A stretch of 64,000 bases of DNA from Promethearchaeota archaeon (GCA_016839745.1 JAEOTS010000152.1:1-64000); one strand, 5' to 3'; shown: positions 14,244-35,072, numbered from the stretch's first letter. The notes: generated by a model not told the origin, from the sequence alone. Numbers and translations: made by a program.

Positions 14244-14411
14244 TCATCATCATTTTTTATGATTTCCACTTTTATCAAATATTTTGCACTATTAAGAATA
14301 GTTAACGCTTAGAAGGTTTATAAATGTTAAAAAAATAGAGAAAATTGGGTAGCGGTTCTATTAAAAATACATCTTTAACTAATTAATTGTATTCCACTAA
14401 TTTTTAATTAT

Positions 14412-15212: not shown

Positions 15213-15375
15213 TTTTTACATTTAAATGATTTAGATAGTTCTAATATTATAAGAAATCAATGAAGATATTTATAAGTCTATGAAAAGTATTTAGTTGGTA
15301 AAATGCATGAACAAAAAAGTAAAATTTATGAAAAAAGTTGTAGAATCCTTAAAAATTCAAGATAATAATATTTAT

Positions 15376-16128: not shown

Positions 16129-16219
16129 TTTTCTTCTTCACTTACAATTTATCATTAATTTTTAATACTTCATAAATAATAATTAATATCATTTAATGCA
16201 AAGTGATTGATAAATAAAA

Positions 16220-16240
16220 TTAATGATAGATGTCTATTTA
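16220..16240 (-). promoter_or_regulatory. Shared motif TAAATAGACA-N4-TCATTAA, candidate TetR operator (copy 1)
   Basis: 17 of 21 positions identical to 19781-19801; lies upstream of the crotonase gene and overlaps a TTTAAATA box. Confidence 0.45.
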
Positions 16241-16293
16241 AAACTATAGTTATAAACTCAGATATTTAAGAAAATAAATTGATTTTCGTTTAG

Positions 16294-17073: not shown

Positions 17074-17639
17074 ATTTAATATTAAATATTATGGTTGTTT
17101 CTCAAAAACTGAATAAATTTATATTATTTAAAAATTATCAAAAATGCGTCCGATATCTAAGAAATAAGGAAAAAATCATTACTATTCGGATTCTATCTTC
17201 CATAACTGAGAATTTACATAAATTATACTAAATCTATAATTAAGCTTAATTGTTTTTACTTCTTTTAGTTCTATAGTATACTAAATAGACAATGTCAATT
17301 TGTTTGATTTATTAAGTAAAATAGAACTATATTACTATCATCAAGATTCAATATTGAATCATTTTGAATTTAATGTTAACTCCATTTTTTAATTTTCTTT
17401 ATCTAAAAAATTTTTGATACCATCAATGCAATTTTTAATAAAAATTAATTCAAATTTCTTGGTTTCTTATCCCGATAATATATTATTGGCAGCGGTTTTT
17501 AACATTATATCCACATTTGTTCTCATTCCATAATGTAGATAACTGTTAAAATTAATTTAAATGGATATCGTATATTTATTTAAAAATGTTTTTGAATATT
17601 ACTAATTAAATATAATTAAGAAACATATTTTATAAAAAT

Positions 17640-18476
17640 GTGAGAAATATTATGTCTGAAAAGCAATTTGAACATATAAAAGTTGAAAAAAATAAAGAAA
17701 ATAATTATGCAATCATTTCAATAATTAGGCCTGAGAAACTAAACGCTTTACACACCATCACTTTAAGAGAGATTGCTGAAGCACTTGAAGAAATGGCTTT
17801 TAATAAGTCAGTGAGATGCGTTGTTCTAAGAGGAACAAAAGAATATACAAAAAAGCCAGCATTTTCTGCAGGAGCAGATTTATCTATCCGTGGTCATCCT
17901 GATATAGATCCTAAAAACTTAATGGATCAATCTCATGCGATGTATATAAGGCAAAAATATTATGATATCATAGAGAGATTTCCCAAACCATTAATTGCCG
18001 CTGTAGATGGGTACGCTTTAGGAGGTGGGTTTGAATTAGTATTAGTCTGCGATATTGTTATTGCATCGAAACGTTCAACATTTGGCTTCCCTGAAATAAA
18101 AAGAGGAATTGCACCATTTAATGGAGGCACTCAAAGGTTAATCAGAAATCTTGGTAAGATTAGAACAAAAACTATGATCTTTTTTGGTGAACATTATAAG
18201 GCTGAAGAGATGTACGATTGGGGAATAATATCATTTCTTGTAGATGAGGACAAATTTGAAGATTTTGTACATCAAAAAGCATCTTGGTTAGGGAATGCCC
18301 CAACTAAAAGTCTTTTTGTTATAAAGAAAGCTATTGATTATGGATCTCAAGTACCTTTGAATTTAGGGCTTCAATTTGAGTATTTAGGTTATGCTATTAA
18401 TTCCCAATCTAAAGATGTAATTGAAGGTGTTACAGCATTTTTACAGAAACGAGAACCCAAGTTCACTGGTGAGTAA
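17640..18476 (+). CDS. Enoyl-CoA hydratase
   Basis: FSAGADL, ALGGGFEL and FGFPEI (both catalytic Glu), AFLQKREPKF. Confidence 0.93.
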   Translation: MRNIMSEKQFEHIKVEKNKENNYAIISIIRPEKLNALHTITLREIAEALEEMAFNKSVRCVVLRGTKEYTKKPAFSAGADLSIRGHPDIDPKNLMDQSHAMYIRQKYYDIIERFPKPLIAAVDGYALGGGFELVLVCDIVIASKRSTFGFPEIKRGIAPFNGGTQRLIRNLGKIRTKTMIFFGEHYKAEEMYDWGIISFLVDEDKFEDFVHQKASWLGNAPTKSLFVIKKAIDYGSQVPLNLGLQFEYLGYAINSQSKDVIEGVTAFLQKREPKFTGE

Positions 18477-18566
18477 ATGAAAATAAAATAAAATCAAAAA
18501 GAATTTTTATTATGCTTTTTTTTTAATTTTTTAATTTATTTATCAAGGTTGTAAGCTGTACTGAAA

Positions 18567-19739
18567 TTATTGCATATCGACAAATTTTCCAGATTTAAGC
18601 ATTTCACATGGTTTTAGATAAGATTTCCCCAATTTCTCCGAATATTCTTCTAATACATTGCTAAGCTCTTTGTAGTTAGTTGTTGCATATTGCATTGGAC
18701 CTGGAAAGTTCATACCTGCTTGAATGGCTTCATCTATAACCTTCCAGCTCTTTACAACGCCTTCTTCCAAAATCCTACAACCTTCATTGGCAGTAATTGC
18801 AATGAAAACCCGACGATCAACTAATCCCGCTTTTTTAGATAAATCAGGCTGAGGCCGCCCTTTTGACCAATCATAATATCCTTTTCCAGTTTTTTTTCCC
18901 AAAGTACCTTTATTATAATGCATTGTTAAAACTTTCCCTGGCTTGAAATCAGCGGATATTTTCTCAGCATAATATAAACCGGCGTTAAATGCTATATCTC
19001 TACCAGTAAAATCGGCTAAAGTCAATGAAGTCATAGGAGCGTTTGGATTAGACAAATCAGCATCAACCTGTTCCCAAGGTATTTCGTTCTCGTATGCTAG
19101 ATCCACAATATAATTAGTATATATGCTACTCGGTGCTAATACCCTATTTACAATGAATCCAGGGCGATCTTTTAAAACTCGCGCAACATATCTCTCTCCT
19201 CTAAGACAAGGTAATGTCTTAGCAACTTTCACACCAATATCCATCGCTTCTTCTGAGGCTTTATCTCCTTTTATCACTTCTATCAAGCGCATTAAGGGGG
19301 CAGGATTAAAGAAATGCATTCCAATTACATTTTCAGGTTTATCACAAACTTGAGCAATTTCTGTTATGCTAATAGAAGACGTATTCGAAGCAAATATACA
19401 ATGCTCAGGTGAATTATCAATTACCTCCTTACATAATTGCTGTTTAATATCGGGTTTCTCTAATACCGCTTCTATAACAAGATCAGCATTTTTCACCGCA
19501 TTGCTTAAGTTTTTATTCACTTTTAATTTTTCCATTATTGTTGCCGCAGTTGCACCTTTAGGTAATTTTCCTTTTTCCTCTAACTTCTCAAAACCAGTCC
19601 TATTGTACTCTAGGCCCTTCTGGATAATTTCATCGCTCACATCCACCGCAGTAACGCTATAACCTGCCATTAAACATACTTGGGCAATTCCTTTTCCCAT
19701 ATCTCCAAAGCCAAGCATTACAATATTTTTTACTTCCAC
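18567..19739 (-). CDS. 3-hydroxyacyl-CoA dehydrogenase (duplicated C-terminal domain)
   Basis: GFGDMGKGIA Rossmann motif, VIEAVLE, ASNTSS, GMHFFNP, PGFIVNR, GKKTGKGYY. Confidence 0.94.
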   Translation of the reverse strand: MEVKNIVMLGFGDMGKGIAQVCLMAGYSVTAVDVSDEIIQKGLEYNRTGFEKLEEKGKLPKGATAATIMEKLKVNKNLSNAVKNADLVIEAVLEKPDIKQQLCKEVIDNSPEHCIFASNTSSISITEIAQVCDKPENVIGMHFFNPAPLMRLIEVIKGDKASEEAMDIGVKVAKTLPCLRGERYVARVLKDRPGFIVNRVLAPSSIYTNYIVDLAYENEIPWEQVDADLSNPNAPMTSLTLADFTGRDIAFNAGLYYAEKISADFKPGKVLTMHYNKGTLGKKTGKGYYDWSKGRPQPDLSKKAGLVDRRVFIAITANEGCRILEEGVVKSWKVIDEAIQAGMNFPGPMQYATTNYKELSNVLEEYSEKLGKSYLKPCEMLKSGKFVDMQ

Positions 19740-19780
19740 ATTATATCACTCTCTTTTATTAATTTTTATGTGATGTTTAA

Positions 19781-19801
19781 TAAATAGACAGCACTCATTA
19801 A
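19781..19801 (+). promoter_or_regulatory. Shared motif TAAATAGACA-N4-TCATTAA, candidate TetR operator (copy 2)
   Basis: Lies in the divergent HAD/thiolase promoter region; matches 16220-16240 on the minus strand. Confidence 0.45.
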
Positions 19802-19944
19802 AAATGTTTTTTAAAATAGCTTTTCTAAAAAAGACTAGCTGTTACACGGCTAAATAGTAAAATTTCAAATTTCTATATTTTAGGAAAAATTTAAAAGAAA
19901 TAATATACAATGTAGATTTAAAAAATTAATGGTGAAAAGTAAAG

Positions 19945-21222
19945 GTGAAAAATAAAGAAGTATGGTTAATTGATTACGCACGCACTGCATTCTCACGATC
20001 TCGACCTACTCAACCTGAAAGTGATGTATTTAGTGAACTTAGAGGAGATGAGCTATTAGCTCAACTTTTAATACATATGTTTGATAAAAGATTAGTAGGT
20101 AAAGGAATCGAAAGAAAAGATATTGACGAATGTTCTGTGGGATGTGCTGCAGGGGTATTAGAAAATTGGACTTATGGAGGTCGTATGCCCCTTTTCATGG
20201 CAGGATTCCCATTTACTGTCCCTGCTTTTTTCATTGATAGACAATGTGGTTCAGCAGGCTCAGGGATGCATGTTGGAATCATGGAGATAATGACGGGTAA
20301 TAGTAAAACTATTCTATCTACTGGGTTTGAACATATGACACGAGTATATGGAAAGGGTGCGGATCCTAATATAAAAGTAGCTTATAAGAATAGCATGTAT
20401 TATCGGCCAGATATGGATTTAGCAAATGTCTTTAATATGCTAAATACTGCTCAATTATTATACGAAGAGGAAGTCCCAAAATTTACTAAGGAAGATCTTG
20501 ACAAGTTTGGAGTTAGAAGTCATAACTTAACTATTAATAACCAAGAATCTGGGTGGTTTAAAGGTGAAATAGTTCCGATTGAAGGCCATGCACCCGGTAA
20601 TGTGGAAGAGAAGATGATAATTGATAAGGACATGAATGCTAGGAAGTCCACATTAGAAGCAGTATTAAAATTACCACGATTGACAAAACCCTTTTTCTTA
20701 GAAAAAAATGGTGGAAAAGAAGGTTATATTAAAAGGGAAGGGACAGATAAAGGAGTTATAACTGCAGCAAATTCTTCTCCTTTAAATGCTGGAGCAACTG
20801 CTGCAGTTTTAATGGAAGCAGAAGAAGCCAAGAAGAGGGAAATTGAACCAATGGCACGTATCGTTTCCATAGGCTGGGCAGGGGTAGATCCTCATACCAT
20901 GGGGAGAGGCCCTGTGCCCGCAACACGAAAGGCTTTAGAGTATGCAGGTCTTAAAGCTGAAGATATCGACTTTTGGGAGATTAATGAGGCATTTTGCATA
21001 GTTGCGTTGAATTGCATGGACAAACTTAATATTCCGGAAGAAAAGGTAAACGTTATGGGCGGGTCAACTGCTATCGGGCACCCTTTAGGATCAACAATGG
21101 TCCGCCTTACTGGCACTTTAGCACGAATCTTAAAGGACAATAAAGCAAAATATGGTGTTGCTAATGCCTGTTGTGGTGGAGGACAGGGTGTGGCAACTGT
21201 AATCGAAAATCTTGATAGCTAA
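19945..21222 (+). CDS. Acetyl-CoA C-acyltransferase (thiolase), copy 1
   Basis: RQCGS nucleophile, EINEAF, GHPLG, CCGGGQG. Confidence 0.95.
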   Translation: MKNKEVWLIDYARTAFSRSRPTQPESDVFSELRGDELLAQLLIHMFDKRLVGKGIERKDIDECSVGCAAGVLENWTYGGRMPLFMAGFPFTVPAFFIDRQCGSAGSGMHVGIMEIMTGNSKTILSTGFEHMTRVYGKGADPNIKVAYKNSMYYRPDMDLANVFNMLNTAQLLYEEEVPKFTKEDLDKFGVRSHNLTINNQESGWFKGEIVPIEGHAPGNVEEKMIIDKDMNARKSTLEAVLKLPRLTKPFFLEKNGGKEGYIKREGTDKGVITAANSSPLNAGATAAVLMEAEEAKKREIEPMARIVSIGWAGVDPHTMGRGPVPATRKALEYAGLKAEDIDFWEINEAFCIVALNCMDKLNIPEEKVNVMGGSTAIGHPLGSTMVRLTGTLARILKDNKAKYGVANACCGGGQGVATVIENLDS

Positions 21223-21489: not shown

Positions 21490-21927
21490 GTGATATTATG
21501 CTATATAATAATAATTTTAGGTTATTATGGAATTATCGCAAATACTATCCTAATTGATGAGTATGGTAACTGGATTTCTTTTTTAAATATGAATAGGACA
21601 ATATTAATATGGACATATACTTCTTATACTCGTAGTTTTTTTCTAGGAGCAATTTTAGTATTTATAGTATGTTTCATTATGACTTACAAGGAAGATATCC
21701 CCCACTATGGAATTAGAGCATCGATTTGGCTAGTTCCCACGATAGTCTTGGAAGGGTTTATTTTTTATTTTCTTATGTTTGGTTTTAGTTTCGATCCCTT
21801 TATTTTACAATTTGCTCATTTCGAGGGATATCTTAACATTTTAATTTTAATCGGATTAACTCTAAGTGGTTCTTTGATAGGTATGAAATTAAAACAATTG
21901 TCAGTACGAAAAAAAGAAAAATATTAG
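21490..21927 (+). CDS. Hypothetical 4-TM membrane protein; frame open upstream to 21391
   Basis: Hydrophobic segments; directly upstream of and co-oriented with the ABC permease genes. Confidence 0.7.
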   Translation: MILCYIIIILGYYGIIANTILIDEYGNWISFLNMNRTILIWTYTSYTRSFFLGAILVFIVCFIMTYKEDIPHYGIRASIWLVPTIVLEGFIFYFLMFGFSFDPFILQFAHFEGYLNILILIGLTLSGSLIGMKLKQLSVRKKEKY

Positions 21928-21961
21928 AATAGAAGGGAATAAATTATATACAGTTTTTTAG

Positions 21962-23044
21962 GTGGAAAAAAGTATGGCTCGTCAAGCTCAGAATATGATT
22001 AAATATATTATCAAGCGGATATTAATAATGTTTCCAATATTAATCATAGTTTTAATAATTACTTTTATTTTATCAAAATCCATGGATGTGTTTCCCGTCA
22101 TTAACCGGATGGCTACGGGCGAAAATTTTGAAACGATACAGAGAATGATTGCAGAGGAAGAAAGAAGAATGGGATATGACAAACCAGTTTTTATTCAGTT
22201 AATTATTTATCTACAGAATTTTTTCACAGGGAATTGGGGTGATTCCTATGTTATTATGCGTGATACACCTGTAATCGAAGTTATAGCTAATGTCTTTCCT
22301 AAAACAATTGAATTAATGATATTTCCGATTGTTATAATTCCTATCCTTGCTGTTAAACTTGGTGTTCTATCTTCAACGAACAAAGATAAACTAAAAGATA
22401 CCTCTATTCGTTTTCTTGCTGTTCTAGGTGCGGGATTTCCAATATTTTTTATAGCTAACCTATTGCAAGTATTTTTTGGTTTTCAACTAAAACAATTTAC
22501 GTATGGTGAAATTAATATACAGATTTTATTCTCAAATACACCTGGAGCTGAATTGTCGGGGGAATATTACACTGGATTTCGACTTATTGATGCTGTTTTA
22601 AATAACGACCCAGTCTTCTTTTTTGATACTATACTCCATTTATTTATTCCAGTAATTTGTATATCATTTGCTTCTCTGGCTGGTATCACTAGACAAACTC
22701 GTTCTAGTATGTTAGATGTTATGGATCAGGATTATATTCGGACAGCCCGAGCTAAGGGAGTTCCGGAAAAAAGGATCAACAACTCACATGCCCTTCGGAA
22801 TGCTTTAATTCCTTCAAGTAATCTCATCATAACCACGATTACAGGGTCACTTTTAGGATCTCTTTTCTTAGAAGCAACTTTTCAGTATTTAGGATTTGGA
22901 TATTACTTTGTTCGCTCTGTATTTTTAGGTGATTATTTACTTATAAATGGATTTTTAGTATGTTCATGTTTAGTTATAATTGGAGGAACCTTAGTTACTG
23001 ATATAATATATACAATTATCGATCCGAGGATAACATATACTTAA
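21962..23044 (+). CDS. Peptide/nickel-type ABC permease (DppB/OppB-like)
   Basis: YIIKRIL, GNWGDS, TRSSMLDVMDQDYIRTARAKG EAA motif, HALRNAL, DIIYTIIDPRI. Confidence 0.93.
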   Translation: MEKSMARQAQNMIKYIIKRILIMFPILIIVLIITFILSKSMDVFPVINRMATGENFETIQRMIAEEERRMGYDKPVFIQLIIYLQNFFTGNWGDSYVIMRDTPVIEVIANVFPKTIELMIFPIVIIPILAVKLGVLSSTNKDKLKDTSIRFLAVLGAGFPIFFIANLLQVFFGFQLKQFTYGEINIQILFSNTPGAELSGEYYTGFRLIDAVLNNDPVFFFDTILHLFIPVICISFASLAGITRQTRSSMLDVMDQDYIRTARAKGVPEKRINNSHALRNALIPSSNLIITTITGSLLGSLFLEATFQYLGFGYYFVRSVFLGDYLLINGFLVCSCLVIIGGTLVTDIIYTIIDPRITYT

Positions 23045-23057
23045 TGATCTAAAAATT

Positions 23058-24059
23058 GTGATTTTAATTATGCAAGGTTATAACGAAAAAGAAAAAATTG
23101 AGGAATATTCAAGTAAGAAGATTAATACAAAAATAAGGCGATTAATCAAATTTTATTTTATGCCTGGATGGCGAAATCCAGACTTTTCCGCACAAGAATA
23201 TCAGATTGAAAAAATAAAATCAAAAAGAAGACTATTCCGCCGTCTTATTACTCCCTTAACCTTGCTTGGTTTTTTTTTGGTTTTAATTGTTGCCTTTATA
23301 GCCGTTTATGCTCCCTGGCTTACTGAACTTACTTTAGCGAATGTAACTCCGCCACTATATCCTGGAGAAGCCTCTTTCCAACAGCCATCACCAGAACACC
23401 CATTAGGTACAACAATATTTGGATGGGATATTCTTGGGAGATTGATCTGGGGTGGTAGGACTACTTTACAGGCAGCAGTGTTCCCAGTTGCAATTTCCAT
23501 AGGTGGAGGTGTTATTTTAGGAACAATTTCGGCATATTTTGGAGGTTGGGTTGATTCCATTATGATGCGTATCTGTGATATATTCTTGAGTTTACCAATG
23601 TTGATTATTGTTATAGTTATTGCTCCCTTGATTGGAAAAGATTTATATAATGTTCTACTAATTTACGGTATTCTTTTTATACCCTTTAACATTAGATTTA
23701 TGCGATCTTTAGTATTACAAGTAAAACAAAACGATTATGTTAGAGCTGCAATAAGTAGTGGTGCAGATAAATTTAGGGTTATGTTTAAACATATTTTTCC
23801 TAATACTATCTCTCCCATTATTATATCTTTTTTTGGAGCAATGGGAATTACTGTTATAGGTCTAGCAGGTCTTGCTTTTATAGGTTTGGGAGACCCTGAT
23901 GTTGCTAATTGGGGAGCAGATATTCTATATGCAAGAGGTCATTTTGAAACTCCAGGAGCATCTCTTTGGCCAGGATTATTCATAGGAATTACTGCAATAG
24001 GATTCATATTAATTGGTGATGGATTGAGAGATGCATTAGATCCACGATTACATATATAA
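23058..24059 (+). CDS. Peptide/nickel-type ABC permease (DppC/OppC-like)
   Basis: HPLGT..GWDI, MMRICD, DYVRAAISSGA, HIFPN, GDGLRDALDP. Confidence 0.93.
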   Translation: MILIMQGYNEKEKIEEYSSKKINTKIRRLIKFYFMPGWRNPDFSAQEYQIEKIKSKRRLFRRLITPLTLLGFFLVLIVAFIAVYAPWLTELTLANVTPPLYPGEASFQQPSPEHPLGTTIFGWDILGRLIWGGRTTLQAAVFPVAISIGGGVILGTISAYFGGWVDSIMMRICDIFLSLPMLIIVIVIAPLIGKDLYNVLLIYGILFIPFNIRFMRSLVLQVKQNDYVRAAISSGADKFRVMFKHIFPNTISPIIISFFGAMGITVIGLAGLAFIGLGDPDVANWGADILYARGHFETPGASLWPGLFIGITAIGFILIGDGLRDALDPRLHI

Positions 24060-24092
24060 AAAATAAAAACACAATAAAAAAGGAATATTTCT

Positions 24093-27059
24093 ATGGCTTT
24101 TAATTATGGATTTCTACTTGTTGAAGTTGTTGTTATCTTATTAATATTAAGTCTTATGATTGTTTTAATAAATAAATTACTTCCAAACGATCAAAGGATG
24201 CTGACAAACACTAAAAGTCTGGTTTTAAGCTTATTAATAGTCTTTGGAATTATCTTTGGTATTGGGGCTGTTATTGAAAGTGTTGAATATTATTATACAA
24301 TAGTTGGATATTTGAATAACTATTATCTCTTTTTTGCAATAGGAATAAGTATATATTTTCCCCTATACAAAGCCTTTTTGAGAAAATTTGAGAAATCTCA
24401 TTCATCTGAAGATATCAATCTACTTTTTAAAATATACAAAAAAAAAAGTAGAATAATAATTGGTTTAGTTTGGGGTATAGCAGCAATATTTCTCTCGTTT
24501 GATCTATTAGGACTTCAATTGGTATGGGAAGCAAATACACCAGATTATGATATATTATATATTGGGGTTTTCACGGCATTTTTTACCGTTTTTTTTATCA
24601 TAATTCTTACATATTTGATAAATAAAATAAGGCCTATTGAGAAACAAATCCCAAATTTGGAACTTAGAAATTCGTTGATCGCGAGTGGAATAATCTCGTT
24701 TGGTATCTGGTTTATCCAATTTATTATTATTGAAATGTATATCTCTCGATTATTCGGAATAACAATTATAAAACAAGATCTTCGTGTAATAATTGTTGCT
24801 ATCCTAGGTATATTTATTGTGAGCTATTTCAATATGTTAAGAACTAAATTTTTACCGAGAGCAGTTATAAAAAGTAAGAAACAAATTCTAGAAGCAATAA
24901 TGAAAGAGAAGGATAAAACAATACAAATTCAGCAATTCAAAGTAGAGGAATCTATATTAGACGCTCAAGATCCTGATGTCAGTTTTAATGAGGATGAAAA
25001 TGTCGTTTATCTTGCAGAAAGTGTTTCTAACAAAATCTACTTCTTTATATTGAAAAAATTTAGGAACTTACATTTTGTAGATAATAACGCCCATTTAATA
25101 AGAAAAAATGGGAAGATATTTAAGAATATCGTCGTAGGAGTTTTGTGGATCATCGTTTTAGTTATCGTATTCATTAATTTATTACAATTATTATCTAATT
25201 TAAATCCCATTTTTGATATATTTATTCTTAGTGTTCAGTTTGCTTTTTTTATGGTTCTTGTCGACATTTCTATTAATTTTATTTTTACTAAACTTATCCC
25301 TAGTGAGAAACAGATCTCTAAAAAATTTCATAGAGATTCTATTTTCTTTGGTGGTATTATTCTGGTTTGGATTTGGGTGATTCCACTTTTCTTTATTTAT
25401 TATTATTTTTTTACAGGCATCTATCAAACCATCATCACTGATTTTTTCTCTACAATAGTTTTTTTGATTACTATTTTTTTAATAGGAATATATATTACGA
25501 GAAGGCTTTCAAGTAAGAGAGGTTTTGACACATCCCTTAGAAAGGCAGTTGTTATTAATTTATTATGGTTGATTATAAATTTACCACTTAACTTATTCTT
25601 TGTTTATCTTTTTGGTGATAATCTTCTAAACGATATTCTTATTCTAGTTATAGACATCGTTATTGGTTCAGTTATCATTATGAAGCTTTATAATAAAGCG
25701 TTTAAACCATCCTTAAATTTTGTGTTTAGTGTTGAAATTATCACTTTTTTCCTAAGTATAATTATTGTTGAAATCTTGTTAACACTATTTCTAAGAATTT
25801 TACCAAATTATAATTTTAATGTTCAAGATATTCGTGTCCATCTTATTATCGATATATTTGTATTTCTCATTTTTTTTGCCGTTTCTTTAAAAGTTAAGTT
25901 CCGTCCAGAACACTTCGAGGATGAGATGAGAAAAGACCAAAAAATATTAACAACGGTAGCAGAAACACAAGTTCAACCTAGAAAGATTGAAGGAAGAAAA
26001 GTCATTTTGGATGTGAAGGATCTAACGACCTATTTTTACAGTGAAGAAGGAGTTGTACGCGCGGTAGAAGGAGTTTCTTTTAAAATTTATGATGGAGAAA
26101 CTCTTGGGCTTGTAGGAGAAACAGGTTGTGGGAAATCAGTTACTGCTTTATCTATACTTCAGGTCGTCCGACCTCCTGGGAAAATTGAGAGTGGAAAAGT
26201 GATATTTGAAGGTGAAAATTTACTCCAAAAATCTGAAAAGGAAATATTAGCCTATCGCGGAAACAAGATAACAATGATCTTTCAAGATCCTCTTAATTCT
26301 CTAAATCCAGTATTTAAAGTAGGTAGACAGATCTCGGAGGTATTTCTTCTACACATGGAAAATGAACTTCTCGTTGAAGCAGTGAAACATCCTGGCAAAA
26401 ATATGTACAGTATTGCTCGAGAATTGAGTGAGCAATTACTAAGGGAACTTAATATTCCTTCCCCAGAACGGGTTTATGAACTATATCCCCATGAATTAAG
26501 TGGGGGAATGCGCCAAAGAATTCAAGTTGCTATGGGTCTTGCATGTAGTCCTAAATTATTAATAGCAGATGAGCCTACAACTGCGTTGGATGTTACAATC
26601 CAAAATCAAATTCTTCAATTAATGAAGAATCTTCGACAAAAATACAATACATCTATACTTTTTATTACCCATGATCTTGGAATCATATCAAAAATGTGTG
26701 ACAGGGTCGCAGTCATGTATAGTGGATTTATAGTTGAATATGGAGATGTTTATAGGATATTTGAAAGGCCATCCCATCCATATACAAAAGGCCTTATTAC
26801 GTCGATACCCGTTATTGGAAAAAAGAAGGAGGAACTTGAAGTAATTCCGGGTTTAGTGCCAAATTTAATATATCCCCCTTCAGGATGTCGATTTCACCCT
26901 CGTTGTCAATATCGTTTTGAGCCTTGTAATTCTAAAGTACCAAAAAGCATAGAAATTGAACCAGAGTATTTCGTGGCATGCCACCTTTATGATCCTCAAT
27001 ATAAAAGTGAGGCAACCCTTAAATTAAAAGAGTTAGAAAAGAAAAATTTCAGTAATTGA
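24093..27059 (+). CDS. DppD-like ABC ATPase fused to an N-terminal multi-TM region of about 600 aa with internal repeats
   Basis: GETGCGKS, LSGGM, IADEP, ITHD and C-terminal GCRFHPRC; long polytopic N-terminus. Confidence 0.9.
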   Translation: MAFNYGFLLVEVVVILLILSLMIVLINKLLPNDQRMLTNTKSLVLSLLIVFGIIFGIGAVIESVEYYYTIVGYLNNYYLFFAIGISIYFPLYKAFLRKFEKSHSSEDINLLFKIYKKKSRIIIGLVWGIAAIFLSFDLLGLQLVWEANTPDYDILYIGVFTAFFTVFFIIILTYLINKIRPIEKQIPNLELRNSLIASGIISFGIWFIQFIIIEMYISRLFGITIIKQDLRVIIVAILGIFIVSYFNMLRTKFLPRAVIKSKKQILEAIMKEKDKTIQIQQFKVEESILDAQDPDVSFNEDENVVYLAESVSNKIYFFILKKFRNLHFVDNNAHLIRKNGKIFKNIVVGVLWIIVLVIVFINLLQLLSNLNPIFDIFILSVQFAFFMVLVDISINFIFTKLIPSEKQISKKFHRDSIFFGGIILVWIWVIPLFFIYYYFFTGIYQTIITDFFSTIVFLITIFLIGIYITRRLSSKRGFDTSLRKAVVINLLWLIINLPLNLFFVYLFGDNLLNDILILVIDIVIGSVIIMKLYNKAFKPSLNFVFSVEIITFFLSIIIVEILLTLFLRILPNYNFNVQDIRVHLIIDIFVFLIFFAVSLKVKFRPEHFEDEMRKDQKILTTVAETQVQPRKIEGRKVILDVKDLTTYFYSEEGVVRAVEGVSFKIYDGETLGLVGETGCGKSVTALSILQVVRPPGKIESGKVIFEGENLLQKSEKEILAYRGNKITMIFQDPLNSLNPVFKVGRQISEVFLLHMENELLVEAVKHPGKNMYSIARELSEQLLRELNIPSPERVYELYPHELSGGMRQRIQVAMGLACSPKLLIADEPTTALDVTIQNQILQLMKNLRQKYNTSILFITHDLGIISKMCDRVAVMYSGFIVEYGDVYRIFERPSHPYTKGLITSIPVIGKKKEELEVIPGLVPNLIYPPSGCRFHPRCQYRFEPCNSKVPKSIEIEPEYFVACHLYDPQYKSEATLKLKELEKKNFSN

Positions 27060-27107
27060 ATAAAAAAGTATTTTATCATAAACCTTAATGAAAATATAAT
27101 ATAGTGT

Positions 27108-28418
27108 ATGAATATGATTTTTCAATTTAATAATCTTTTTACCATTTTAGAATTAGGAGGAATTATATTTCTTTTTTGTTTAACTTTGGCTATTTCATTT
27201 TTTATCATTAAATGGGATGCTCGATCTCAATTAATTAGAAGAAAATTCCATCTCTATGTAATTTCACCACTTACTTGTATTCTTTTTAGCTTTATTCCTC
27301 TACCAGAATTTATCATAGGAAACTTTTTATCATTATTAATTGTTATATACGTTCTAATAGCAGCGATTACTAGTTTTGTTGTTAAATATATTACATTTAA
27401 AGTTATTGGAGTTGAAAAATATGGTCAAATTAGTAATCTTGAAAGAGGTATAAATCTGTTAAATGTTAAAGATTTAAAAGTATTTTATCCTCTCATTGGA
27501 GGAATATTTAGAAGACAAATAGGTGTCATTAAAGCTGTTAACGGTATATCTTTCAAAATTAAGACAGGTGAAACCCTTGGATTAGTGGGAGAAAGTGGTT
27601 GCGGGAAAACAACAGCAGCTCTGTCGATCCTTGGTTTAGTAAAAAAAACTAACGGAGATATTCGATTTCACGACAAACCTCTCCCTTTCCCTTATTCAAA
27701 TGTTATAAGACAAAAAATCCAAATTGTTTATCAGGATCCAGATGCTTCTTTAAATCCTCGCTTGAAGGTCTTTGATATCATTGCTGAACCTCTTAAAAAC
27801 ATGTTAGGTATTAATAAGAAAGATGAACTACGAAAAAAAGTTTTAGAATTAATGAAAGAGGTAGCATTGAAACGAGAACATATGGATCGTTATCCACATG
27901 AGTTTTCAGGAGGTCAAAAGCAAAGAATTGTTATTGCTCGAGCGCTTGCAACCAATCCAGAACTTATAATTCTTGACGAACCAACATCTGCCCTTGATGT
28001 ATCAGTGCAAGCACAAATTCTTAACTTACTAAAAAAATTACAAAAAAATTATGGTTATGGTTATTTATTCATTACACATAATTTAGCTGCAGTAAATCAT
28101 ATTGCTGATCGAATTGCAGTTATGTATCTTGGTCAAATTGTTGAAATTGGGGATACTGATCAAATTTTTTCAAAACCTACACATCCTTACACCCAAGCGC
28201 TTTTAGCATCAAGATCTGAAGTTGACATGAAAAATAGGGATATAAAATTTATTCTTCATGGTGAAGTTCCAAGTCCTATAGCCCCACCTACGGGATGTAC
28301 CTTTCACCCTCGCTGTTCCTCAGATGTGCGTACTAAGGAATGTGAATTTGATTTACCTCATAAGATAAAAATCGAAAATGGTCATTATATCTGGTGTATA
28401 AATCCCCCGAAACAATAA
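27108..28418 (+). CDS. DppF-like ABC ATPase with about 3 N-terminal TM helices
   Basis: GESGCGKT, FSGGQ, ILDEP, GCTFHPRC; hydrophobic first ~100 aa. Confidence 0.9.
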   Translation: MNMIFQFNNLFTILELGGIIFLFCLTLAISFFIIKWDARSQLIRRKFHLYVISPLTCILFSFIPLPEFIIGNFLSLLIVIYVLIAAITSFVVKYITFKVIGVEKYGQISNLERGINLLNVKDLKVFYPLIGGIFRRQIGVIKAVNGISFKIKTGETLGLVGESGCGKTTAALSILGLVKKTNGDIRFHDKPLPFPYSNVIRQKIQIVYQDPDASLNPRLKVFDIIAEPLKNMLGINKKDELRKKVLELMKEVALKREHMDRYPHEFSGGQKQRIVIARALATNPELIILDEPTSALDVSVQAQILNLLKKLQKNYGYGYLFITHNLAAVNHIADRIAVMYLGQIVEIGDTDQIFSKPTHPYTQALLASRSEVDMKNRDIKFILHGEVPSPIAPPTGCTFHPRCSSDVRTKECEFDLPHKIKIENGHYIWCINPPKQ

Positions 28419-28457
28419 TTTCTTTGTAAAAGAGCATTTTAATAAGTTATAATTATT

Positions 28458-28526
28458 AATTATGAAAAGTTTAAATACTCTCCAATCGTATGATAATCAA
28501 AGTATGTTTAATTCATACTGTATATT
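28458..28526 (+). repeat. 69-bp inverted repeat, left copy: BRE/TATA promoter plus palindromic operator
   Basis: 65/69 identical to the reverse complement of 32182-32250; contains GAAAAG-TTTAAATA and AGTATG-N7-CATACT. Confidence 0.9.
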
Positions 28527-28583
28527 TAAAAAATTTATTCCAATTTGAATTCTATAACATAATTAGTAAAATTAATTAGAGAG

Positions 28584-29837
28584 TTGAAAATGAGTAAAGA
28601 AATTTATGATGTAATACCTGAAGACGCCGATAATAACTTTCTTCCATATTTTTCAGATAAAGAAATGGCTCAACGTCACACAAATGTCCGAAAGGAAATG
28701 AAGGAAAGAGGAATAGATGTACTTTTAGTATATGGGCATGTAGGGGTTGGAAGTAGTCCTGGTCAGATACATCTTCAGTATCTCACCCGTTTTGCGAATG
28801 TTTTTGAAACGTATCTTACTGTTCCAGTAGAGGGTGAACCTACAATGTTTATTAATTTAGATTATCATTGCGTAAACGCAGCTACCATTTCCTATATCAA
28901 AGACATAAAAGATGGAGACACTTTGCCTAATGCGATTCAAAAAATCAAAGATCTTGGATACGAACGAGGAACGATTGGACTTGTTGGCCCTGGAGGAGCT
29001 CAATTTGGTGATATCACCTTATTCACTGAACAACGTCAGGTTGTAGATAAAAGTTTACCGGATGCAAAAATTGTCAGTGCTAATCCTTGGCTTCAAGAAC
29101 TTCAACTTATTAAAAGCGAAGAAGAAATTGCACTCCTTAGGCGGGCAGGAGCTTTAACAGATCTTGCTCAAGAAGAGTCTTTTCAATTGACCCGTCCCGG
29201 AATCAAACACAAAGACTTACAACGAGCAATGAATTTGACAGCTGTTCGTCATTATGGAACATTTCCATTCGGTCATGTCAGTTCCTTCTCAATGGAAAAT
29301 CCTGAATATTATTATCCTACGCCTTATTCAACAGGTAAACGAGTGAGAGTAGGTGATTTCCTAATGTCAGAATTTTGTTTGGGATACGGTAATTATTGGG
29401 GAAAGCTCTGGGGATCTTGGTTTGTTGGTGATCCAACACCTGAATATGAAAAACTTTTTAATGTTGCAGCCGTTGTTCACGATAATTTAGTTTCCGAGCT
29501 AAAACCAGGAATGAAAGGAAAAGACATAGATGTTTTTCTTAAACCAATTTACGATGCTGGATTTGAACAAGTACCAAGTTTATTGATTGCTGGTTGGTGT
29601 TTTATGATGCAGCCACCGTTAGCAGGTGCAGCGCCAGGTACTCGTACCACATTCTTTTCAAACATGTATCATGATTTTGAGTTTAAGCCGGGTCACACTG
29701 TTACTTTACACATTTGGGTTAGGATTCCCAATACAAAGAAAGGTATATGGGTAGGTTCTTCTGGGGTCTTCACAAAAAATGGTTATGAGAACTTTAATAA
29801 ATATCCCGTCAGCGAACTACGTATAGTTCCAATTTAG
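28584..29837 (+). CDS. M24 peptidase/creatinase-fold protein with degenerate metal ligands
   Basis: Creatinase-N-like start (MKERGIDVLLVYG), LIKSEEEIALLRRA, RPG, GDFL, FKPG. Confidence 0.82.
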   Translation: MKMSKEIYDVIPEDADNNFLPYFSDKEMAQRHTNVRKEMKERGIDVLLVYGHVGVGSSPGQIHLQYLTRFANVFETYLTVPVEGEPTMFINLDYHCVNAATISYIKDIKDGDTLPNAIQKIKDLGYERGTIGLVGPGGAQFGDITLFTEQRQVVDKSLPDAKIVSANPWLQELQLIKSEEEIALLRRAGALTDLAQEESFQLTRPGIKHKDLQRAMNLTAVRHYGTFPFGHVSSFSMENPEYYYPTPYSTGKRVRVGDFLMSEFCLGYGNYWGKLWGSWFVGDPTPEYEKLFNVAAVVHDNLVSELKPGMKGKDIDVFLKPIYDAGFEQVPSLLIAGWCFMMQPPLAGAAPGTRTTFFSNMYHDFEFKPGHTVTLHIWVRIPNTKKGIWVGSSGVFTKNGYENFNKYPVSELRIVPI

Positions 29838-29909
29838 ATGTAGTTATAATTCATCCTGATAAAATTCAGTTGAATGTATAGACGAGAATTTCATCTAAAT
29901 ACAGGATTC

Positions 29910-30012
29910 TTTTTTTTTTTTTAAATCTATCAATAATATTGATATAAAAAAGAAGAATAATTCTCTCTATTATTAGAACAAAGAATTGCTATAATGTAAT
30001 AAAAAAAAAAAA
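29910..30012. terminator. Oligo-T and oligo-A tracts, probable archaeal terminators for the two convergent genes
   Basis: T13 at 29910-29922 after the + gene; A12 at 30001-30012 after the - gene. Confidence 0.5.
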
Positions 30013-30033
30013 TTAAATTTCTTAATTAAAAAG

Positions 30034-32142
30034 TTACTTTCTCCTTCTCATCATTACATAAATAATTCCGACAGTTGTAACAGCTAATGTGATAAACATC
30101 GAATATCCAGGTATTTCAGGTATGGGCGCCGACCATCCTACCCACTTTATATGGGTAAGATCTCCAACAATCGTTGGCATTCCATGATAGAACTCAAATT
30201 CACGTACTTCCCATTCTCTCCTATAAACGTATCCAAATTTACCATGACCTATCCACATCCATGGGTACTGGTAGTTTTGTAGTGTAAGCCCTATATTATC
30301 ATATAATCCCTGTCTTGTAATGCTGTCTGAAAAATAGATCTGATCTATCCAGTCTGTGACATTATCAAGATAACTGAAAGCTAAGTTGTACCATACCGTA
30401 AAGGGTCCTGGATACTTGAAGTACGCATTAATGTGTGCGTGACCTATATCATTCGGTGCTATAGCCCACGTCGATCCCCATATTTGTGCAGTCATCGCGC
30501 CTCCTCCCAATATATGTGGCCAGACAGAAGGTAATTCATGAGAAGCATCGTCATAATAAGCCATTCCAATATTTGCTAGAGCTGTTCCCATATAATCTTC
30601 AAGAACCCCTTGAACCGAAGTTGTATCCCAATAGAAATCAACCGTGTATATAGGATTTGAATTTGCAACATCAATCCAATCTTGATCTGGACTATTTTCA
30701 TCAAGATTTCTGGACGGGTCAGCGCATTCAGCTGGATATTGAGCAAGTATAGCCTCCCGTGCTATGGTAAGATTTAAATATGGCATAGGAATGCTTGGGT
30801 TAGCATAGAGGTGGTCGTTACCAAGAAAACTATTCATACGCGTCGCACGTCCATTATAAGCTGTCTGCAAAAATCCTTCATAGTCGAATGCGTATGAGAC
30901 TGCTTTTCGGAGTAAGCGAGGGATTCCATTGGTGGTGGTGACATTCACCCAGTATGTCTCATTAACGCAATTCAATATAAGACAGAGTGGATAATCTCCA
31001 ATCGGGTTTGTATAATATGTCACATCAGCTTGGGCGATAACTTCGTCATAAACAAAATTAAAGCCACTGACGTCGGGAGAAAAATCTATTGCACCAGTCT
31101 TCATAGCTAAATTACGTGCTGCCGTACCATCTGCATCAGCAGTAAATATAACAAATTGTACTTCATCAATCTGGAACCAATCGAGAGCTTCAAGATAATC
31201 TTTATTCCAATAATTCTCATTTTTCGTCATTAAGCCTCCCGGTGTCGGTCCTGTGGTCGTCCAATGATCAAATATATATGGCCCCGTTCCAACCAAGTGC
31301 TTGAAGGTTTCATCCTGAGGAAAGGAGGGATTTTCTCCAAAACCATAAATTGGCGCATCCCAATAGTTCGCATAAGACTCCATCGATATCATCAAAATAT
31401 AATGTTGAGGATTACCTGCTAAAATCTCCCAGGCTGAAAAAGAAGCCCAATCATTATAGTTGATTTTAATTGTTCCCCCTCCATTAGGTCCTCCCGCATC
31501 TAAAATAGTTACATTCTTAATTTTAGGAAAAGTACCGTTTAGTTGAGGAATAGTTGCAACCATGCCATTATAGGAAGGCATTTGGCCAATATAAGATGAA
31601 AAGTTCCAACTTTGAGTATAAAAAGGGAGATAGTCACTCGCATCTTCCCAAAAATCACCTAGATATTTAGTATTACCGTTTCCTGTTAAATTACCCGAAA
31701 CTATCATTATTCGATCCAGATTCCACTTTGCTGCCGTGGCGTTCCATGCTGAGCCATCGTGGAAGGTTACATTTTCTCGCAACGTTAAAGTAGTCGACTT
31801 AATACCTCCGCTATTGAAAAATCCTTTTGAATTATTTTCTACTGGCCAATATTCGAATGCCCAATTGGTTGCGAGGCAAGGTTGTAATTCAGAGAGATTG
31901 CCATTCCAATAAGCAGGATATGTTACAAAACCCTCTAGGGAAGGGAAACGGGCCGAATCAGCTGTAGATGCGAGACGAATGGCTGGGTCCCAATCTCCCC
32001 CTAAAGGATTAGTTTGGAGACCGTACTTAAAGACCAATGGATCTGCTTGAGCGGATTTAGGTTCTGCCATAACTGGGAAAAATGGTATAACGAAAGAACT
32101 TAAGAATAATATCAAGACTAAAATTTTTGTAAATCTTCTCAT
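30034..32142 (-). CDS. ABC substrate-binding protein (family 5) with C-terminal IPGY-TM-RRRK anchor
   Basis: Signal peptide, LATNW, LRENVTFHDG, GTGPY, RKAVSYAFD; IPEIPGY followed by a TM helix and basic tail. Confidence 0.9.
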   Translation of the reverse strand: MRRFTKILVLILFLSSFVIPFFPVMAEPKSAQADPLVFKYGLQTNPLGGDWDPAIRLASTADSARFPSLEGFVTYPAYWNGNLSELQPCLATNWAFEYWPVENNSKGFFNSGGIKSTTLTLRENVTFHDGSAWNATAAKWNLDRIMIVSGNLTGNGNTKYLGDFWEDASDYLPFYTQSWNFSSYIGQMPSYNGMVATIPQLNGTFPKIKNVTILDAGGPNGGGTIKINYNDWASFSAWEILAGNPQHYILMISMESYANYWDAPIYGFGENPSFPQDETFKHLVGTGPYIFDHWTTTGPTPGGLMTKNENYWNKDYLEALDWFQIDEVQFVIFTADADGTAARNLAMKTGAIDFSPDVSGFNFVYDEVIAQADVTYYTNPIGDYPLCLILNCVNETYWVNVTTTNGIPRLLRKAVSYAFDYEGFLQTAYNGRATRMNSFLGNDHLYANPSIPMPYLNLTIAREAILAQYPAECADPSRNLDENSPDQDWIDVANSNPIYTVDFYWDTTSVQGVLEDYMGTALANIGMAYYDDASHELPSVWPHILGGGAMTAQIWGSTWAIAPNDIGHAHINAYFKYPGPFTVWYNLAFSYLDNVTDWIDQIYFSDSITRQGLYDNIGLTLQNYQYPWMWIGHGKFGYVYRREWEVREFEFYHGMPTIVGDLTHIKWVGWSAPIPEIPGYSMFITLAVTTVGIIYVMMRRRK

Positions 32143-32531: not shown

Positions 32532-33803
32532 TTGAAAGAAGTGTGGTTAGTGGACTACGCTCGGACTGCGTTTTCTAGATCTAGACCAACCCAACCCGAA
32601 AGGGATGTATTTGGAGAGATTAGGGGAGATGCATTACTAGCTGAGTTATTAATGAAATTTTTTGACGGTAGATTGGCAGATAAAGGAATAGAAAGAAAAG
32701 ATATGGGGGAAGTATCAATCGGAGTCGCCGCTGGTGTATTAGAAAATTGGACATATGGCGGACGAATTCCGTTATTTTTAGCGGGGTTTCCATTTGAAGT
32801 TCCTTCTTTCTTTATAGATCGACAATGTGGTTCAGCAGGTAGTGGTATGCATGTTGGCATTATGGAAATTATGACTGGACAGATTAAGACCGCATTAGCA
32901 ACGGGTTTTGAACACATGACTCGCGTGAGAGGTAAAGGGACAGATCCCAATATATCGTCGGCTAATAAAAAAAGTATATTTTACAGACCCGAATTAGATT
33001 TGCAAACGACCTTTAACATGCTACAAACGGCACAGAAGCTATATGAGGAAGAAGTACCTACATTTACTAAAGAAGATCTAGACAAGTTTGGTGTAAGAAG
33101 TCATAATCTTGCTGTTAAAAGTCACGAAGATGGCTTTTTCAAAGGTGAGATAATACCCATTGAAGGACACGCTCCAGGAAATGTCGAAGAGAAAATGATT
33201 ATCGATAGGGACATGAATGCCCGAAAATCTACTCTAGAAGCTGTTTCTCAGTTGCGTCGAATATCACAACCTTTTTTCCTCGAAAAAAATGGGGGAAAAG
33301 AAGGGTATGTAAAAAGAGAAGGTACTGAGGAGGGCGTGATCACTGCCGGAAATTCATCTCCACTAAACGCTGGAGCTACAGCAGCAGTACTTATGGAAGC
33401 AGAAGAAGCGAAGAAAAGAGGAATAGAACCCCTAGCAAGAATCGTATCCATTGGATGGGCTGGCGTAGATCCTACCGTAATGGGAAGAGGTCCGGTTCCA
33501 GCTACTCAAAAAGCATTACAATATGCGAATCTTTCTGCTGAGGATATCGATTATTGGGAGATAAATGAGGCGTTTTGCATAGTTGCACTAAATTGTATGG
33601 ATAAATTTAACCTTCCTGAAGAGAAAGTAAATGTCATGGGAGGTTCGACCGCTATAGGGCATCCATTGGGCTCCACAATGATACGATTAACCGGTACCGT
33701 AGCAAGGATACTGAAAGAAAAGAAAGCGAAATACGGTATTGCTAACGCATGCGTGGGAGGAGGACAAGGGGTAGCAACTATTATCGAAAATCTCGATGCT
33801 TAA
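32532..33803 (+). CDS. Acetyl-CoA C-acyltransferase (thiolase), copy 2
   Basis: RQCGS, EINEAF, GHPLG, CVGGGQG; close paralog of 19945..21222. Confidence 0.95.
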   Translation: MKEVWLVDYARTAFSRSRPTQPERDVFGEIRGDALLAELLMKFFDGRLADKGIERKDMGEVSIGVAAGVLENWTYGGRIPLFLAGFPFEVPSFFIDRQCGSAGSGMHVGIMEIMTGQIKTALATGFEHMTRVRGKGTDPNISSANKKSIFYRPELDLQTTFNMLQTAQKLYEEEVPTFTKEDLDKFGVRSHNLAVKSHEDGFFKGEIIPIEGHAPGNVEEKMIIDRDMNARKSTLEAVSQLRRISQPFFLEKNGGKEGYVKREGTEEGVITAGNSSPLNAGATAAVLMEAEEAKKRGIEPLARIVSIGWAGVDPTVMGRGPVPATQKALQYANLSAEDIDYWEINEAFCIVALNCMDKFNLPEEKVNVMGGSTAIGHPLGSTMIRLTGTVARILKEKKAKYGIANACVGGGQGVATIIENLDA

Positions 33804-34010
33804 AATATATCTCAAAGAATCAATACAAGAAATATTTTAGTATCATTTATTTTTCTTTTTCTTTTCATAATGTTCTTCATTAGCGTATATTTGGAAGAAT
33901 ATATTCATTGAACAATTAGCCAAACTATCACATTTATCTAAAAAAAGTAAAAAAATGTTAAATATGGAGATTCTATTTTTAATAAAATAAAATTGAAATA
34001 TGCATTAATT

Positions 34011-35072
34011 TTACTTTATGTAACCTGCGGCTGTTTTCAATCTCTTTTCGGCATCTTGAACAATTTCTTCAATAATATTTCTGACTTTTTTCACTTGTTG
34101 GATTATACCAATACTTTGGCCCAATAAAACAGCACCAGAGTTAATGTCGCCTGTATAAGCTGCTTCGTATGCTTTTCCTTCAGCAATTATATCTTCTTGA
34201 GTCATTTGCGCTTCTTCGGCCATTTTTTGTTGTTTGTCCGTTACGAGTCCGTGATGTAGCGAGTATTCGTTCTTCCATAGCCGAATTGGTCCAAGCGCTC
34301 CGGTTGCTAAAATAGTATCTTGAGCATTAGCAGTAGGTGGTACTGATTTATATTCCTTGGAAAATTCGCTTTCTTCCGATGCAATAAATCGTGAACCCAT
34401 AGCAACAGCACCTGCACCTAACGATAAAGCAGCGGCAAGACCTTCACCAGTAGCAAAACCACCACAAGCAATTACTGGAAGATCTGGGTGCTTTTTCATT
34501 ACTTGTTGGAGTAATACTAGCGTGCTAACCTTTTCATAGGATTGATGTCCCCCGCCCTCGGTTCCTGTAACGACGACACCATCGACACCAGAGGCCGCAC
34601 ACTTATCTACTAGCCATAAAGCTGGACCAACATGGAAATGTTTTATTTGAGATCCACTTTCTTTTAACTTCAAATACGCTTTAGATTGCGGCAAAGTTTT
34701 TGAGGAACCCGCGCTGGTGATAGCATAAACGCACTGCTCTTTCAATTTTGGATTTTCCATTATAAATTTAGGAATTTGCTTTACCAAAATTGGTGCATCA
34801 GCTTCTCTTCTGGAAGTTCTTATGTTAAATCCAAATGGTTTATCCGTATGCTCAACAACTTCCAACATGTTATCTTTTAAAATTTGAACGGGATTCTTTC
34901 CGGCCATGTAATCGCTTACTAGAGCAGAATGGCTCAGTACGCCTAAACCTCCAGCTTCAGAAACTGCGATTGTTAATTGGGTTGTATAAAAAGGTCCCAT
35001 CGGGGCTGCGATGATGGGATGTTTAATCCCTAACATTTTAGTAATATTCGTTTCTAAAACCATATTATTCAC
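34011..35072 (-). CDS. Nitronate monooxygenase/FabK-like FMN protein
   Basis: APMG, VSEAGGLG, PFGFN, EGGGH, IACGGF, MGSRF, GQSIG. Confidence 0.9.
   Translation of the reverse strand: MNNMVLETNITKMLGIKHPIIAAPMGPFYTTQLTIAVSEAGGLGVLSHSALVSDYMAGKNPVQILKDNMLEVVEHTDKPFGFNIRTSRREADAPILVKQIPKFIMENPKLKEQCVYAITSAGSSKTLPQSKAYLKLKESGSQIKHFHVGPALWLVDKCAASGVDGVVVTGTEGGGHQSYEKVSTLVLLQQVMKKHPDLPVIACGGFATGEGLAAALSLGAGAVAMGSRFIASEESEFSKEYKSVPPTANAQDTILATGALGPIRLWKNEYSLHHGLVTDKQQKMAEEAQMTQEDIIAEGKAYEAAYTGDINSGAVLLGQSIGIIQQVKKVRNIIEEIVQDAEKRLKTAAGYIK

Follow-up and report, generated by a model that had tools for sequence, protein, structure and literature searches.

Both ATPases of an Opp/Dpp-type importer in Asgard archaea are fused to membrane domains of no known family

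Textbook type I ATP-binding cassette (ABC) importers are driven by soluble ATPases, and the fusion of a membrane domain to an ATPase is seen as the mark of an exporter. An Opp/Dpp-type gene cluster of a Promethearchaeota archaeon raises the question of why an importer should carry both of its ATPases, OppD and OppF, behind membrane domains of their own. The cluster lies in a stretch of 64,000 nucleotides (GCA_016839745.1, JAEOTS010000152.1:1-64000; the window hereafter), which is contig C130 of a 3.5-Mb metagenome-assembled genome (MAG) of 192 contigs, 89% complete and with 5.8% contamination. The host is a Loki-type Asgard archaeon, and Asgard archaea are the closest known prokaryotic relatives of eukaryotes. 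The cluster spans 21490 to 32142, with six genes on the plus strand (a gene for a small protein with four transmembrane [TM] helices, OppB, OppC, a 988-amino-acid [aa] OppD, a 436-aa OppF, and an M24 peptidase-like gene, in that order) and a binding-protein gene on the minus strand. We find that a whole Asgard order keeps an importer of this kind, with both ATPases as integral membrane proteins.

Judged from its sequence, the window appears to encode a working type I importer of the PepT family (Opp/Dpp, TC 3.A.1.5). PepT systems have two permeases, and an earlier reading of this DNA, made from the sequence alone (the sequence-only reading), had called both of them intact; both are indeed full-length BPD_transp_1 proteins. 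OppB (21962 to 23044, plus strand, 360 aa, complete) matches Pfam BPD_transp_1 at 4e-31 together with BPD_transp_1_N and is 53 to 86% identical to its orthologues in 16 related operons, and OppC (23058 to 24059, plus strand, 333 aa, complete) matches BPD_transp_1 at 5e-29 and is 47 to 86% identical to 18 orthologues. The two domains expected of PepT ATPases, ABC_tran and oligo_HPY, are present above the Pfam cut-offs in both proteins, at aa 659 to 830 and 881 to 945 of OppD (24093 to 27059, plus strand) and at aa 145 to 294 (3e-34) and 345 to 405 (4e-16) of OppF (27108 to 28418, plus strand). The connector and ATPase of OppD occupy aa 611 to 988 (25923 to 27059), and the best PDB matches of this ATPase are OppD/DppD chains (M. 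tuberculosis OppD 8j5q, 7e-103; E. coli OppD 8z21_C, 3e-83), the two named chains aligning only from aa ~622 to 638 onward; the ATPase of OppF lies at 27471 to 28418. Walker A, signature, Walker B, and H-loop motifs are all found in both nucleotide-binding domains (NBDs), and a pattern search for the FQDP form of the Q-loop found it in OppD, not in OppF. Each protein ends in a tail of four cysteines, which, like the Walker and signature motifs, the sequence-only reading had reported correctly. The OppD tail (nucleotides [nt] 26886 to 26981) reads C-x5-C-x6-C-x17-C, a spacing identical by sequence comparison to that of the [4Fe-4S] site of E. coli DppD (PMC12136057); the OppF tail (nt 28296 to 28397) reads C-x5-C-x8-C-x17-C and is a putative [4Fe-4S] site. 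The binding protein is of the expected family 5 (SBP_bac_5, 2e-25, 90 bits against a cut-off of 32).

The departure from the family lies in what precedes the ATPases. By hydropathy, ~640 aa with ~14 to 15 helices lie ahead of the OppD ATPase and ~120 aa with 3 helices ahead of that of OppF, so that the fusion first noticed in the sequence-only reading is borne out and neither ATPase is the soluble, peripheral protein typical of PepT systems. Neither the ~640 aa of OppD nor the ~120 aa of OppF matches any Pfam or NCBIfam family, and no solved chain in the PDB covers OppD aa 1 to 620. The window system shares two BPD_transp_1 permeases, oligo_HPY ATPases, a four-cysteine motif of [4Fe-4S] type, and a family-5 binding protein with the E. 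coli DppABCDF/OppABCDF and M. tuberculosis OppABCD/DppABCD systems (8z1v, 8z21, 8j5q, 8wd9). In every solved system, however, each ATPase is soluble or, as in M. tuberculosis, joined to nothing but its partner ATPase, whereas in the window each has an N-terminal polytopic membrane domain, and the operon has an additional gene for a four-TM protein.

The fusions recur across related genomes. Among 400 genomes of the phylum, 42 encode relatives of the N-terminal 262 aa of OppD. Three genera of one family account for nearly all of them, and wherever the contig permits a full gene, the OppD frame is open over 630 to 1100 aa. The OppF anchor is present in 35 of the 400, always in open frames of 425 to 636 aa save two shorter ones at contig ends. 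We compared 20 loci from 18 relatives, and all have the arrangement OppB-OppC-TM:OppD-TM:OppF, usually with the four-TM gene first and the binding protein flanking. OppD in these loci has 625 to 1067 aa and 5 to 17 helices, and OppF has 425 to 698 aa and 2 to 13 helices. A TM-fused OppD is always paired with a TM-fused OppF, both in these loci and on a second contig of the window's own genome, where the operon order, with the four-TM gene first, is repeated. That genome holds three Opp systems: one with soluble ATPases (contig C2; 426 and 369 aa), one with a fused pair (contig C43; 647 aa with 6 predicted helices and 435 aa with 3), and that of the window. A soluble Opp system is present in every sampled genome of the genus with a match; the fused systems are patchy in distribution and often occur in several copies.

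A sister family carries a more divergent version, and one of its members, Ca. Harpocratesius repetitus, has a circular, closed genome of 4,361,485 bp. In this genome OppD has 658 aa and OppF 453 aa, the profiles of the first OppD membrane module and of the OppF anchor match at E 5e-8 and 3e-18, respectively, and NCBI labels the proteins no more closely than "ABC transporter ATP-binding protein" and "ATP-binding cassette domain-containing protein." With uninterrupted fused frames in more than 40 independent assemblies and a closed genome, the fusions are not artefacts; that they were artefacts absent from relatives was the first of two findings that the sequence-only reading had said would overturn it. 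Another sister-family genome (G132) encodes, at L102:6503-8968 (plus strand), an OppD of 821 aa with no predicted helices, the ATPase of which is split by a coiled-coil-like insertion of ~450 to 550 aa with a very high content of charged residues.

We computed ratios of nonsynonymous to synonymous substitution (dN/dS) against the three closest orthologues. The OppD membrane modules give 0.25 to 0.39 (0.25 to 0.39 for the first module and 0.27 to 0.36 for the second), the ATPases 0.11, the OppF anchor 0.65, and the linker between the OppD modules 0.41 to 0.93, which is close to neutral. The membrane modules are thus under purifying selection, weaker than that on the ATPases.

The membrane region of OppD consists of two modules rather than one domain. 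Module A (aa 1 to 275; 24093 to 24917) is modeled by AlphaFold2 (AF2) from 29 sequences as seven long helices (pLDDT 84, pTM 0.70), the last of which (aa 230 to 274) reaches ~20 residues past the membrane in the model. Lysines and arginines number 15 on its inside loops against 1 outside, placing the N-terminus outside the cell and the C-terminus inside. Its conserved motifs are NKxRPIEKxIP in a cytoplasmic loop, WSIQLIIxELYL in helix 6, and QDIRV and KFxPE at the start and the cytoplasmic end of helix 7, respectively. The second module (aa 335 to 610, ~8 helices; 25095 to 25922) is a partial copy of module A comprising helices 4 to 7, as shown by the self-match of aa 78 to 247 to aa 306 to 468, and it is interrupted by a four-helix insert, module B (~aa 450 to 575; nt 25440 to 25817), which matches the N-terminus of the long OppF forms of relatives (E 2e-9 to 7e-5). 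Between the two modules lies a cytoplasmic linker (aa 276 to 334; 24918 to 25094) in which a run of 41 residues shares 18 with the beginning of the functional-type NBD farther on (E 3e-7). Because the linker retains this relic of an ATPase N-terminus, we conclude that the double-module OppD arose by tandem duplication of a module together with the start of its ATPase; in the ATPase tree such double forms arose at least twice.

The connector between membrane and ATPase is constant in length. From the last QDIR motif to Walker A there are 93 to 97 aa in 18 of 21 OppD homologues, a spacing held despite only ~35% identity in the TM region and helix numbers of 5 to 17. We also considered whether a separate soluble ATPase might be made by internal translation and rejected this, as no conserved internal methionine is visible in the aligned connectors.

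The anchor of OppF is simpler. With its connector it occupies aa 1 to 121 (27108 to 27470), and hydropathy and the positive-inside count give three helices with the N-terminus out and the C-terminus in. This anchor (module C), with the motif [IF]NWDxRSQL[IV], is common to all OppF forms aligned (9 short and 12 long), and hhalign relates the long to the short forms at a probability of 99.8%; between module A and the OppF anchor it gives only a weak hint (48%). At L053:6843-8852 and L042:6410-8506 (both minus strand), OppF has 10 to 13 predicted helices, with repeated copies of module B before the three-helix anchor. In the ATPase tree the 436-aa OppF of the window is sister to a 612-aa orthologue, and modules must therefore be gained or lost quickly.

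In a tree built from the ATPase domains only, one branch sets the fused OppDs apart (support 87/67) and another the fused OppFs (94/85). Each fusion could accordingly have arisen just once; with only two or three soluble sequences in the tree, this is not strong proof. Close relatives differ by the gain or loss of modules, which have also been duplicated, inserted, and exchanged between OppD and OppF, and the exact number of helices is therefore not critical. These are modules of no known family that evolve by duplication and shuffling, in an operon that adds a probable fifth, small membrane subunit.

Do the modules exist anywhere else? A module A profile of 29 sequences, searched against 1.84 billion representative proteins, returned only 69 matches. 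Every complete one bears an OppD ATPase, the short ones look like contig-end fragments, and no free-standing module A was seen among the 69. Module A belongs to no Pfam or NCBIfam family; Pfam at E values up to 5 gave only scattered single matches over all 29 sequences, and the ESM Atlas gave no usable match. Foldseek against the PDB returned nothing below E 0.7, and the best VIA-align match, to LptF, is partial (110 residues) and at noise level (Z 7.9). The second finding that would have overturned the sequence-only reading, membership of the TM region in a known family, is thus likewise absent from Pfam, NCBIfam, Foldseek, and VIA-align. We found no account of membrane-fused Opp/Dpp ATPases in the literature, of which our coverage was incomplete, and an Asgard transporter survey lists PepT systems, in the passages searched, without remark on such ATPases (PMC7997004). 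The architecture therefore appears to be undescribed, and the suggestion of the sequence-only reading that this might be a new kind of importer with extra membrane modules has held up.

What are the membrane domains for? Building on the architecture, conservation, and modular evolution described above, we infer that they are non-translocating tethers or lateral scaffolds that hold each ATPase beside the OppBC core, a role and a placement to which we give a probability of about 0.45. Within a single order of Lokiarchaeial Asgard archaea, both ATPases have gained an N-terminal membrane domain that is not a part of the channel: one or more copies of the seven-helix module in OppD and the three-helix anchor in OppF, with extra four-helix modules in some relatives. 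The N-terminus lies outside the cell, and a connector of fixed length leads from the last membrane helix into the ATPase. Under our proposal the ATPases would be kept permanently at the membrane, OppD beside OppB and OppF beside OppC, so that the complex could not lose them, and the enlarged membrane surface might serve for the binding of the four-TM subunit or other partners.

The predicted topology, which puts both ATPases in the cytoplasm, fits such a tether, as do the constant connector length, the reach of the last module A helix past the membrane, the relaxed purifying selection on the modules, their tolerance of changing helix number, and the lack of a free-standing form among the 69 matches. 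In E. coli DppBCDF, moreover, DppD pairs with DppB and DppF with DppC, and loss or oxidation of the [4Fe-4S] cluster makes the ATPases dissociate from the permeases (PMC12136057); given this dissociation, a covalent membrane tether would have a benefit. Several points weigh on the other side. A single helix suffices as a tether, and 7 to 17 helices make an expensive anchor. The near-invariant residues D153, W206, Q209, E214, Y216, R219, Q228, D229, and R231, which lie in or at the ends of the module A helices, are polar or charged in a way that suggests a more specific site. Nor does the host's membrane call for tethering in general, as one of its Opp systems has soluble ATPases. No computed result shows contact with OppB or OppC; a complex prediction of OppB, OppC, and module A gave a median score of 0.05 against a mark of 0.32, and we counted it neither for nor against docking.

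One known likeness is in possible working rather than in sequence. The TMD0 of eukaryotic ABCC transporters (SUR1, MRP1) and of TAP1/TAP2 is an extra N-terminal helix bundle outside the translocation core with docking or stabilizing functions. We detected no sequence or fold similarity between TMD0 and the window modules, and TMD0 precedes an exporter-type membrane domain, whereas the bundle in the window precedes the ATPase of a type I importer.

The main rival, which we consider unlikely, holds that module A is a seven-helix, receptor-like domain that would sense a signal from outside or within the membrane (the membrane's own state, a lipid, or a ligand) and switch the ATPase on or off through its rigid last helix, in likeness to the membrane domains of adenylyl cyclases or to bacterial 7TM receptor modules fused to cytoplasmic enzymes. 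Seven helices with the N-terminus out and the C-terminus in, a conserved charged and polar cluster predicted at the outer ends of helices 5 to 7, the conserved cytoplasmic loop NKxRPIEKxIP, the fixed-length connector, and a domain that is fused to an enzyme and never free are all what such a sensor would have. Against these stand the lack of significant similarity to any receptor family: the Pfam model 7TMR-DISM_7TM, which has the seven-helix, N-out topology in common with module A, matches 1 of 29 sequences at E 0.067, below threshold, and the Foldseek rows for G protein-coupled receptors have TM-scores of ~0.2. A tuned receptor would not usually vary in copy number or put up with half-modules and inserts, as these domains do; the OppF anchor, furthermore, is different and weakly constrained. 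Class III adenylyl cyclases carry large polytopic domains on a cytoplasmic catalytic domain, and the role of these domains was long unclear (PMC12414865). They offer the sensor an analogy without homology, in a different enzyme and with different helix numbers.

Quite unlikely, in our estimate, is that the extra helices serve chiefly as an assembly hub, recruiting the four-TM protein, membrane-anchored binding proteins, or neighboring transporters into a supercomplex, in the way that the TMD0 of TAP recruits tapasin and that of SUR1 recruits Kir6.2. Most of these operons begin with the conserved four-TM gene, their binding proteins have a membrane anchor, and some genomes hold more than one copy of the system; the idea also overlaps with that of a scaffold. 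The four-TM protein, however, accompanies Opp operons with soluble ATPases as well (contig C2 and locus L104) and is hence independent of the fusions, and the C-terminal helix of the binding protein is a Loki-CTERM signal, probably removed. In a bolder reading, the seven-helix module would be a new receptor or gate wired to the motor of the importer, so that uptake is switched by an external or membrane signal, and with the four-TM subunit the system would form a supercomplex of at least 30 helices, an as yet undescribed class with a functional analogy to the TMD0 hubs of eukaryotic ABC transporters; we regard this, too, as quite unlikely.

A further idea, in line with the lipid handling and lipophilic cargo suggested in the sequence-only reading, is that the fused domains form a second transport or lipid-handling path, that of an exporter-like half-transporter or of a hydrophobic cargo, driven by the same ATPases. 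The membrane domains are large, polar residues lie inside their helices, and acyl-CoA genes stand on both sides of the operon. We nevertheless hold such a path to be very improbable. OppD aa 1 to 640 has no Pfam or NCBIfam match such as ABC_membrane, the translocating permeases OppB and OppC are present separately, and the fold matches of module A by Foldseek and VIA-align include no exporter above noise; similarity to ABC exporters or transporter families is thus lacking in Pfam, NCBIfam, and fold searches alike. Helix number ranges from 2 to 17 among relatives, the acyl-CoA synteny is confined to the three closest of them, and because the OppD and OppF domains are unrelated and unequal (15 against 3 helices), no symmetric pathway is possible. 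That the ATPases are really soluble, the fusions being products of misassembly, stop-codon loss, or a wrong start in a MAG of 192 contigs with 5.8% contamination, has next to no probability given the open frames in so many assemblies and a closed genome, the paralogue in the same genome, the purifying selection on the membrane part, and the conserved motifs and spacing. As the system is present in the closed genome of Ca. Harpocratesius repetitus, its genes can be synthesized and expressed for structural work, which would tell whether tethers, hubs, or sensors can be built into an ABC importer.

The operon opens with orf145 (21490 to 21927, plus strand), which lies outside the region covered by the sequence-only reading and encodes a small four-TM membrane protein of 145 aa that is probably a fifth subunit. 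Of the 20 loci from relatives, 14 have a homologue at the operon; homologues also adjoin both other Opp operons of the genome, including the one with soluble ATPases on contig C2, and occur in the sister-family loci L100, L101, and L104, the last of which has soluble ATPases. Because it is also found beside soluble-ATPase operons, we take the four-TM protein to be an additional subunit of Opp systems in general and not one tied to the fusions. Its family comprises at least 588 clusters, all annotated as "hypothetical," and the named members are nearly all from Asgard MAGs or marine-sediment metagenomes, with one record labeled bacterial. It matches no Pfam or NCBIfam family. Its AF2 model has four helices (pLDDT 70), for which the best match of a fold search is at noise level (Z 6.8), and hhalign found no relation between it and any of the fused modules.

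The start of orf145 is unusual. The codons for KIDWGRQG, the N-terminus conserved in the family, lie in frame ahead of the first canonical start (GTG, 21490), and there is no ATG, GTG, or TTG between the stop at 21388 and this GTG. The true start probably lies between 21391 and 21489; translation begins at a non-canonical codon (ATT, ATC, or ATA), or else the protein has recently lost its N-terminus. In the three closest relatives the four-TM ORFs, counted from the first ATG, GTG, or TTG after the stop, have 126 to 128 aa and likewise lack the conserved N-terminus.

What the importer carries is less readily read from the locus. Two published accounts report that these archaea live on amino acids and peptides (PMC7997004, PMC11284389), and in P. 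syntrophicum a family-5 solute-binding protein is top-ranked in the proteome by score and abundance and is the main N-glycosylated protein (PMC11284389). Given this lifestyle and this abundance, peptide-type importers matter for their physiology. Peptides or amino-acid derivatives are the default reading of the cargo. The binding protein of the window (30034 to 32142, minus strand, 702 aa) has a signal peptide and 12 N-x-S/T sequons. PepT importers take up peptides or else nickel, opines, or oligosaccharides; the closest solved relative of this binding protein matches only at E 4e-5, and judged by this distance, the protein is too divergent for a ligand to be assigned. At its C-terminus is a Loki-CTERM helix (nt 30037 to 30114; NCBIfam NF033507, 23.2 bits against a cut-off of 19.9), which is probably removed, by analogy with such signals, and so may not persist as a membrane helix. 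We had considered this helix as a docking partner and downgraded it once it was recognized as a sorting signal. A solute-binding-protein gene, placed divergently or convergently, is present in 19 of the 20 relatives' loci.

The sequence-only reading had favored a non-peptide or lipophilic cargo, citing the acyl-CoA genes and an aromatic-rich binding protein. The protein is indeed rich in aromatic residues (15.9% F+W+Y), which says little alone. Acyl-CoA-type genes flank the operon at 12349 to 21222 and 32532 to 35072; they include a TetR-family gene, two enoyl-CoA hydratases, a 3-hydroxyacyl-CoA dehydrogenase, two thiolases, two NMO-type (enoyl-reductase-like) genes, and one cyclase-family gene, and together they resemble a pathway of the butyrate or beta-oxidation type. 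Four of these genes (one hydratase, the dehydrogenase, and the two thiolases) were compared among the relatives, and because they are syntenic only in the three closest, a non-peptide or lipophilic cargo is not supported.

Two other neighbors bear on the cargo. The gene 3' of OppF (28584 to 29837, plus strand; Pfam Peptidase_M24 and Creatinase_N) encodes a divergent M24-family (pita-bread fold) peptidase-like protein. It occupies the same position only in the three closest relatives, its NCBIfam matches are all far below the cut-offs, and its nearness to the transporter is only a hint on cargo. A pyruvate formate-lyase (PFL)-like glycyl-radical enzyme is encoded at 35157 to 37658 (minus strand), 3 kb from the binding protein, and such an enzyme follows the fused OppF in seven more distant loci (L038, L044, L045, L047, L049, L050, and L053). 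The enzyme of the window falls below all NCBIfam equivalog cut-offs, the nearest models being HypD, sulfopropanediol dehydratase, and CutC, and it may point to the real substrate of the importer. Farther along the window, at 38905 to 41191 (plus strand), a gene for a tyrosine recombinase (Phage_integrase) stands immediately before one of Cdc6/Orc1 type, a pair that could represent an integrated element or a replication-origin region.

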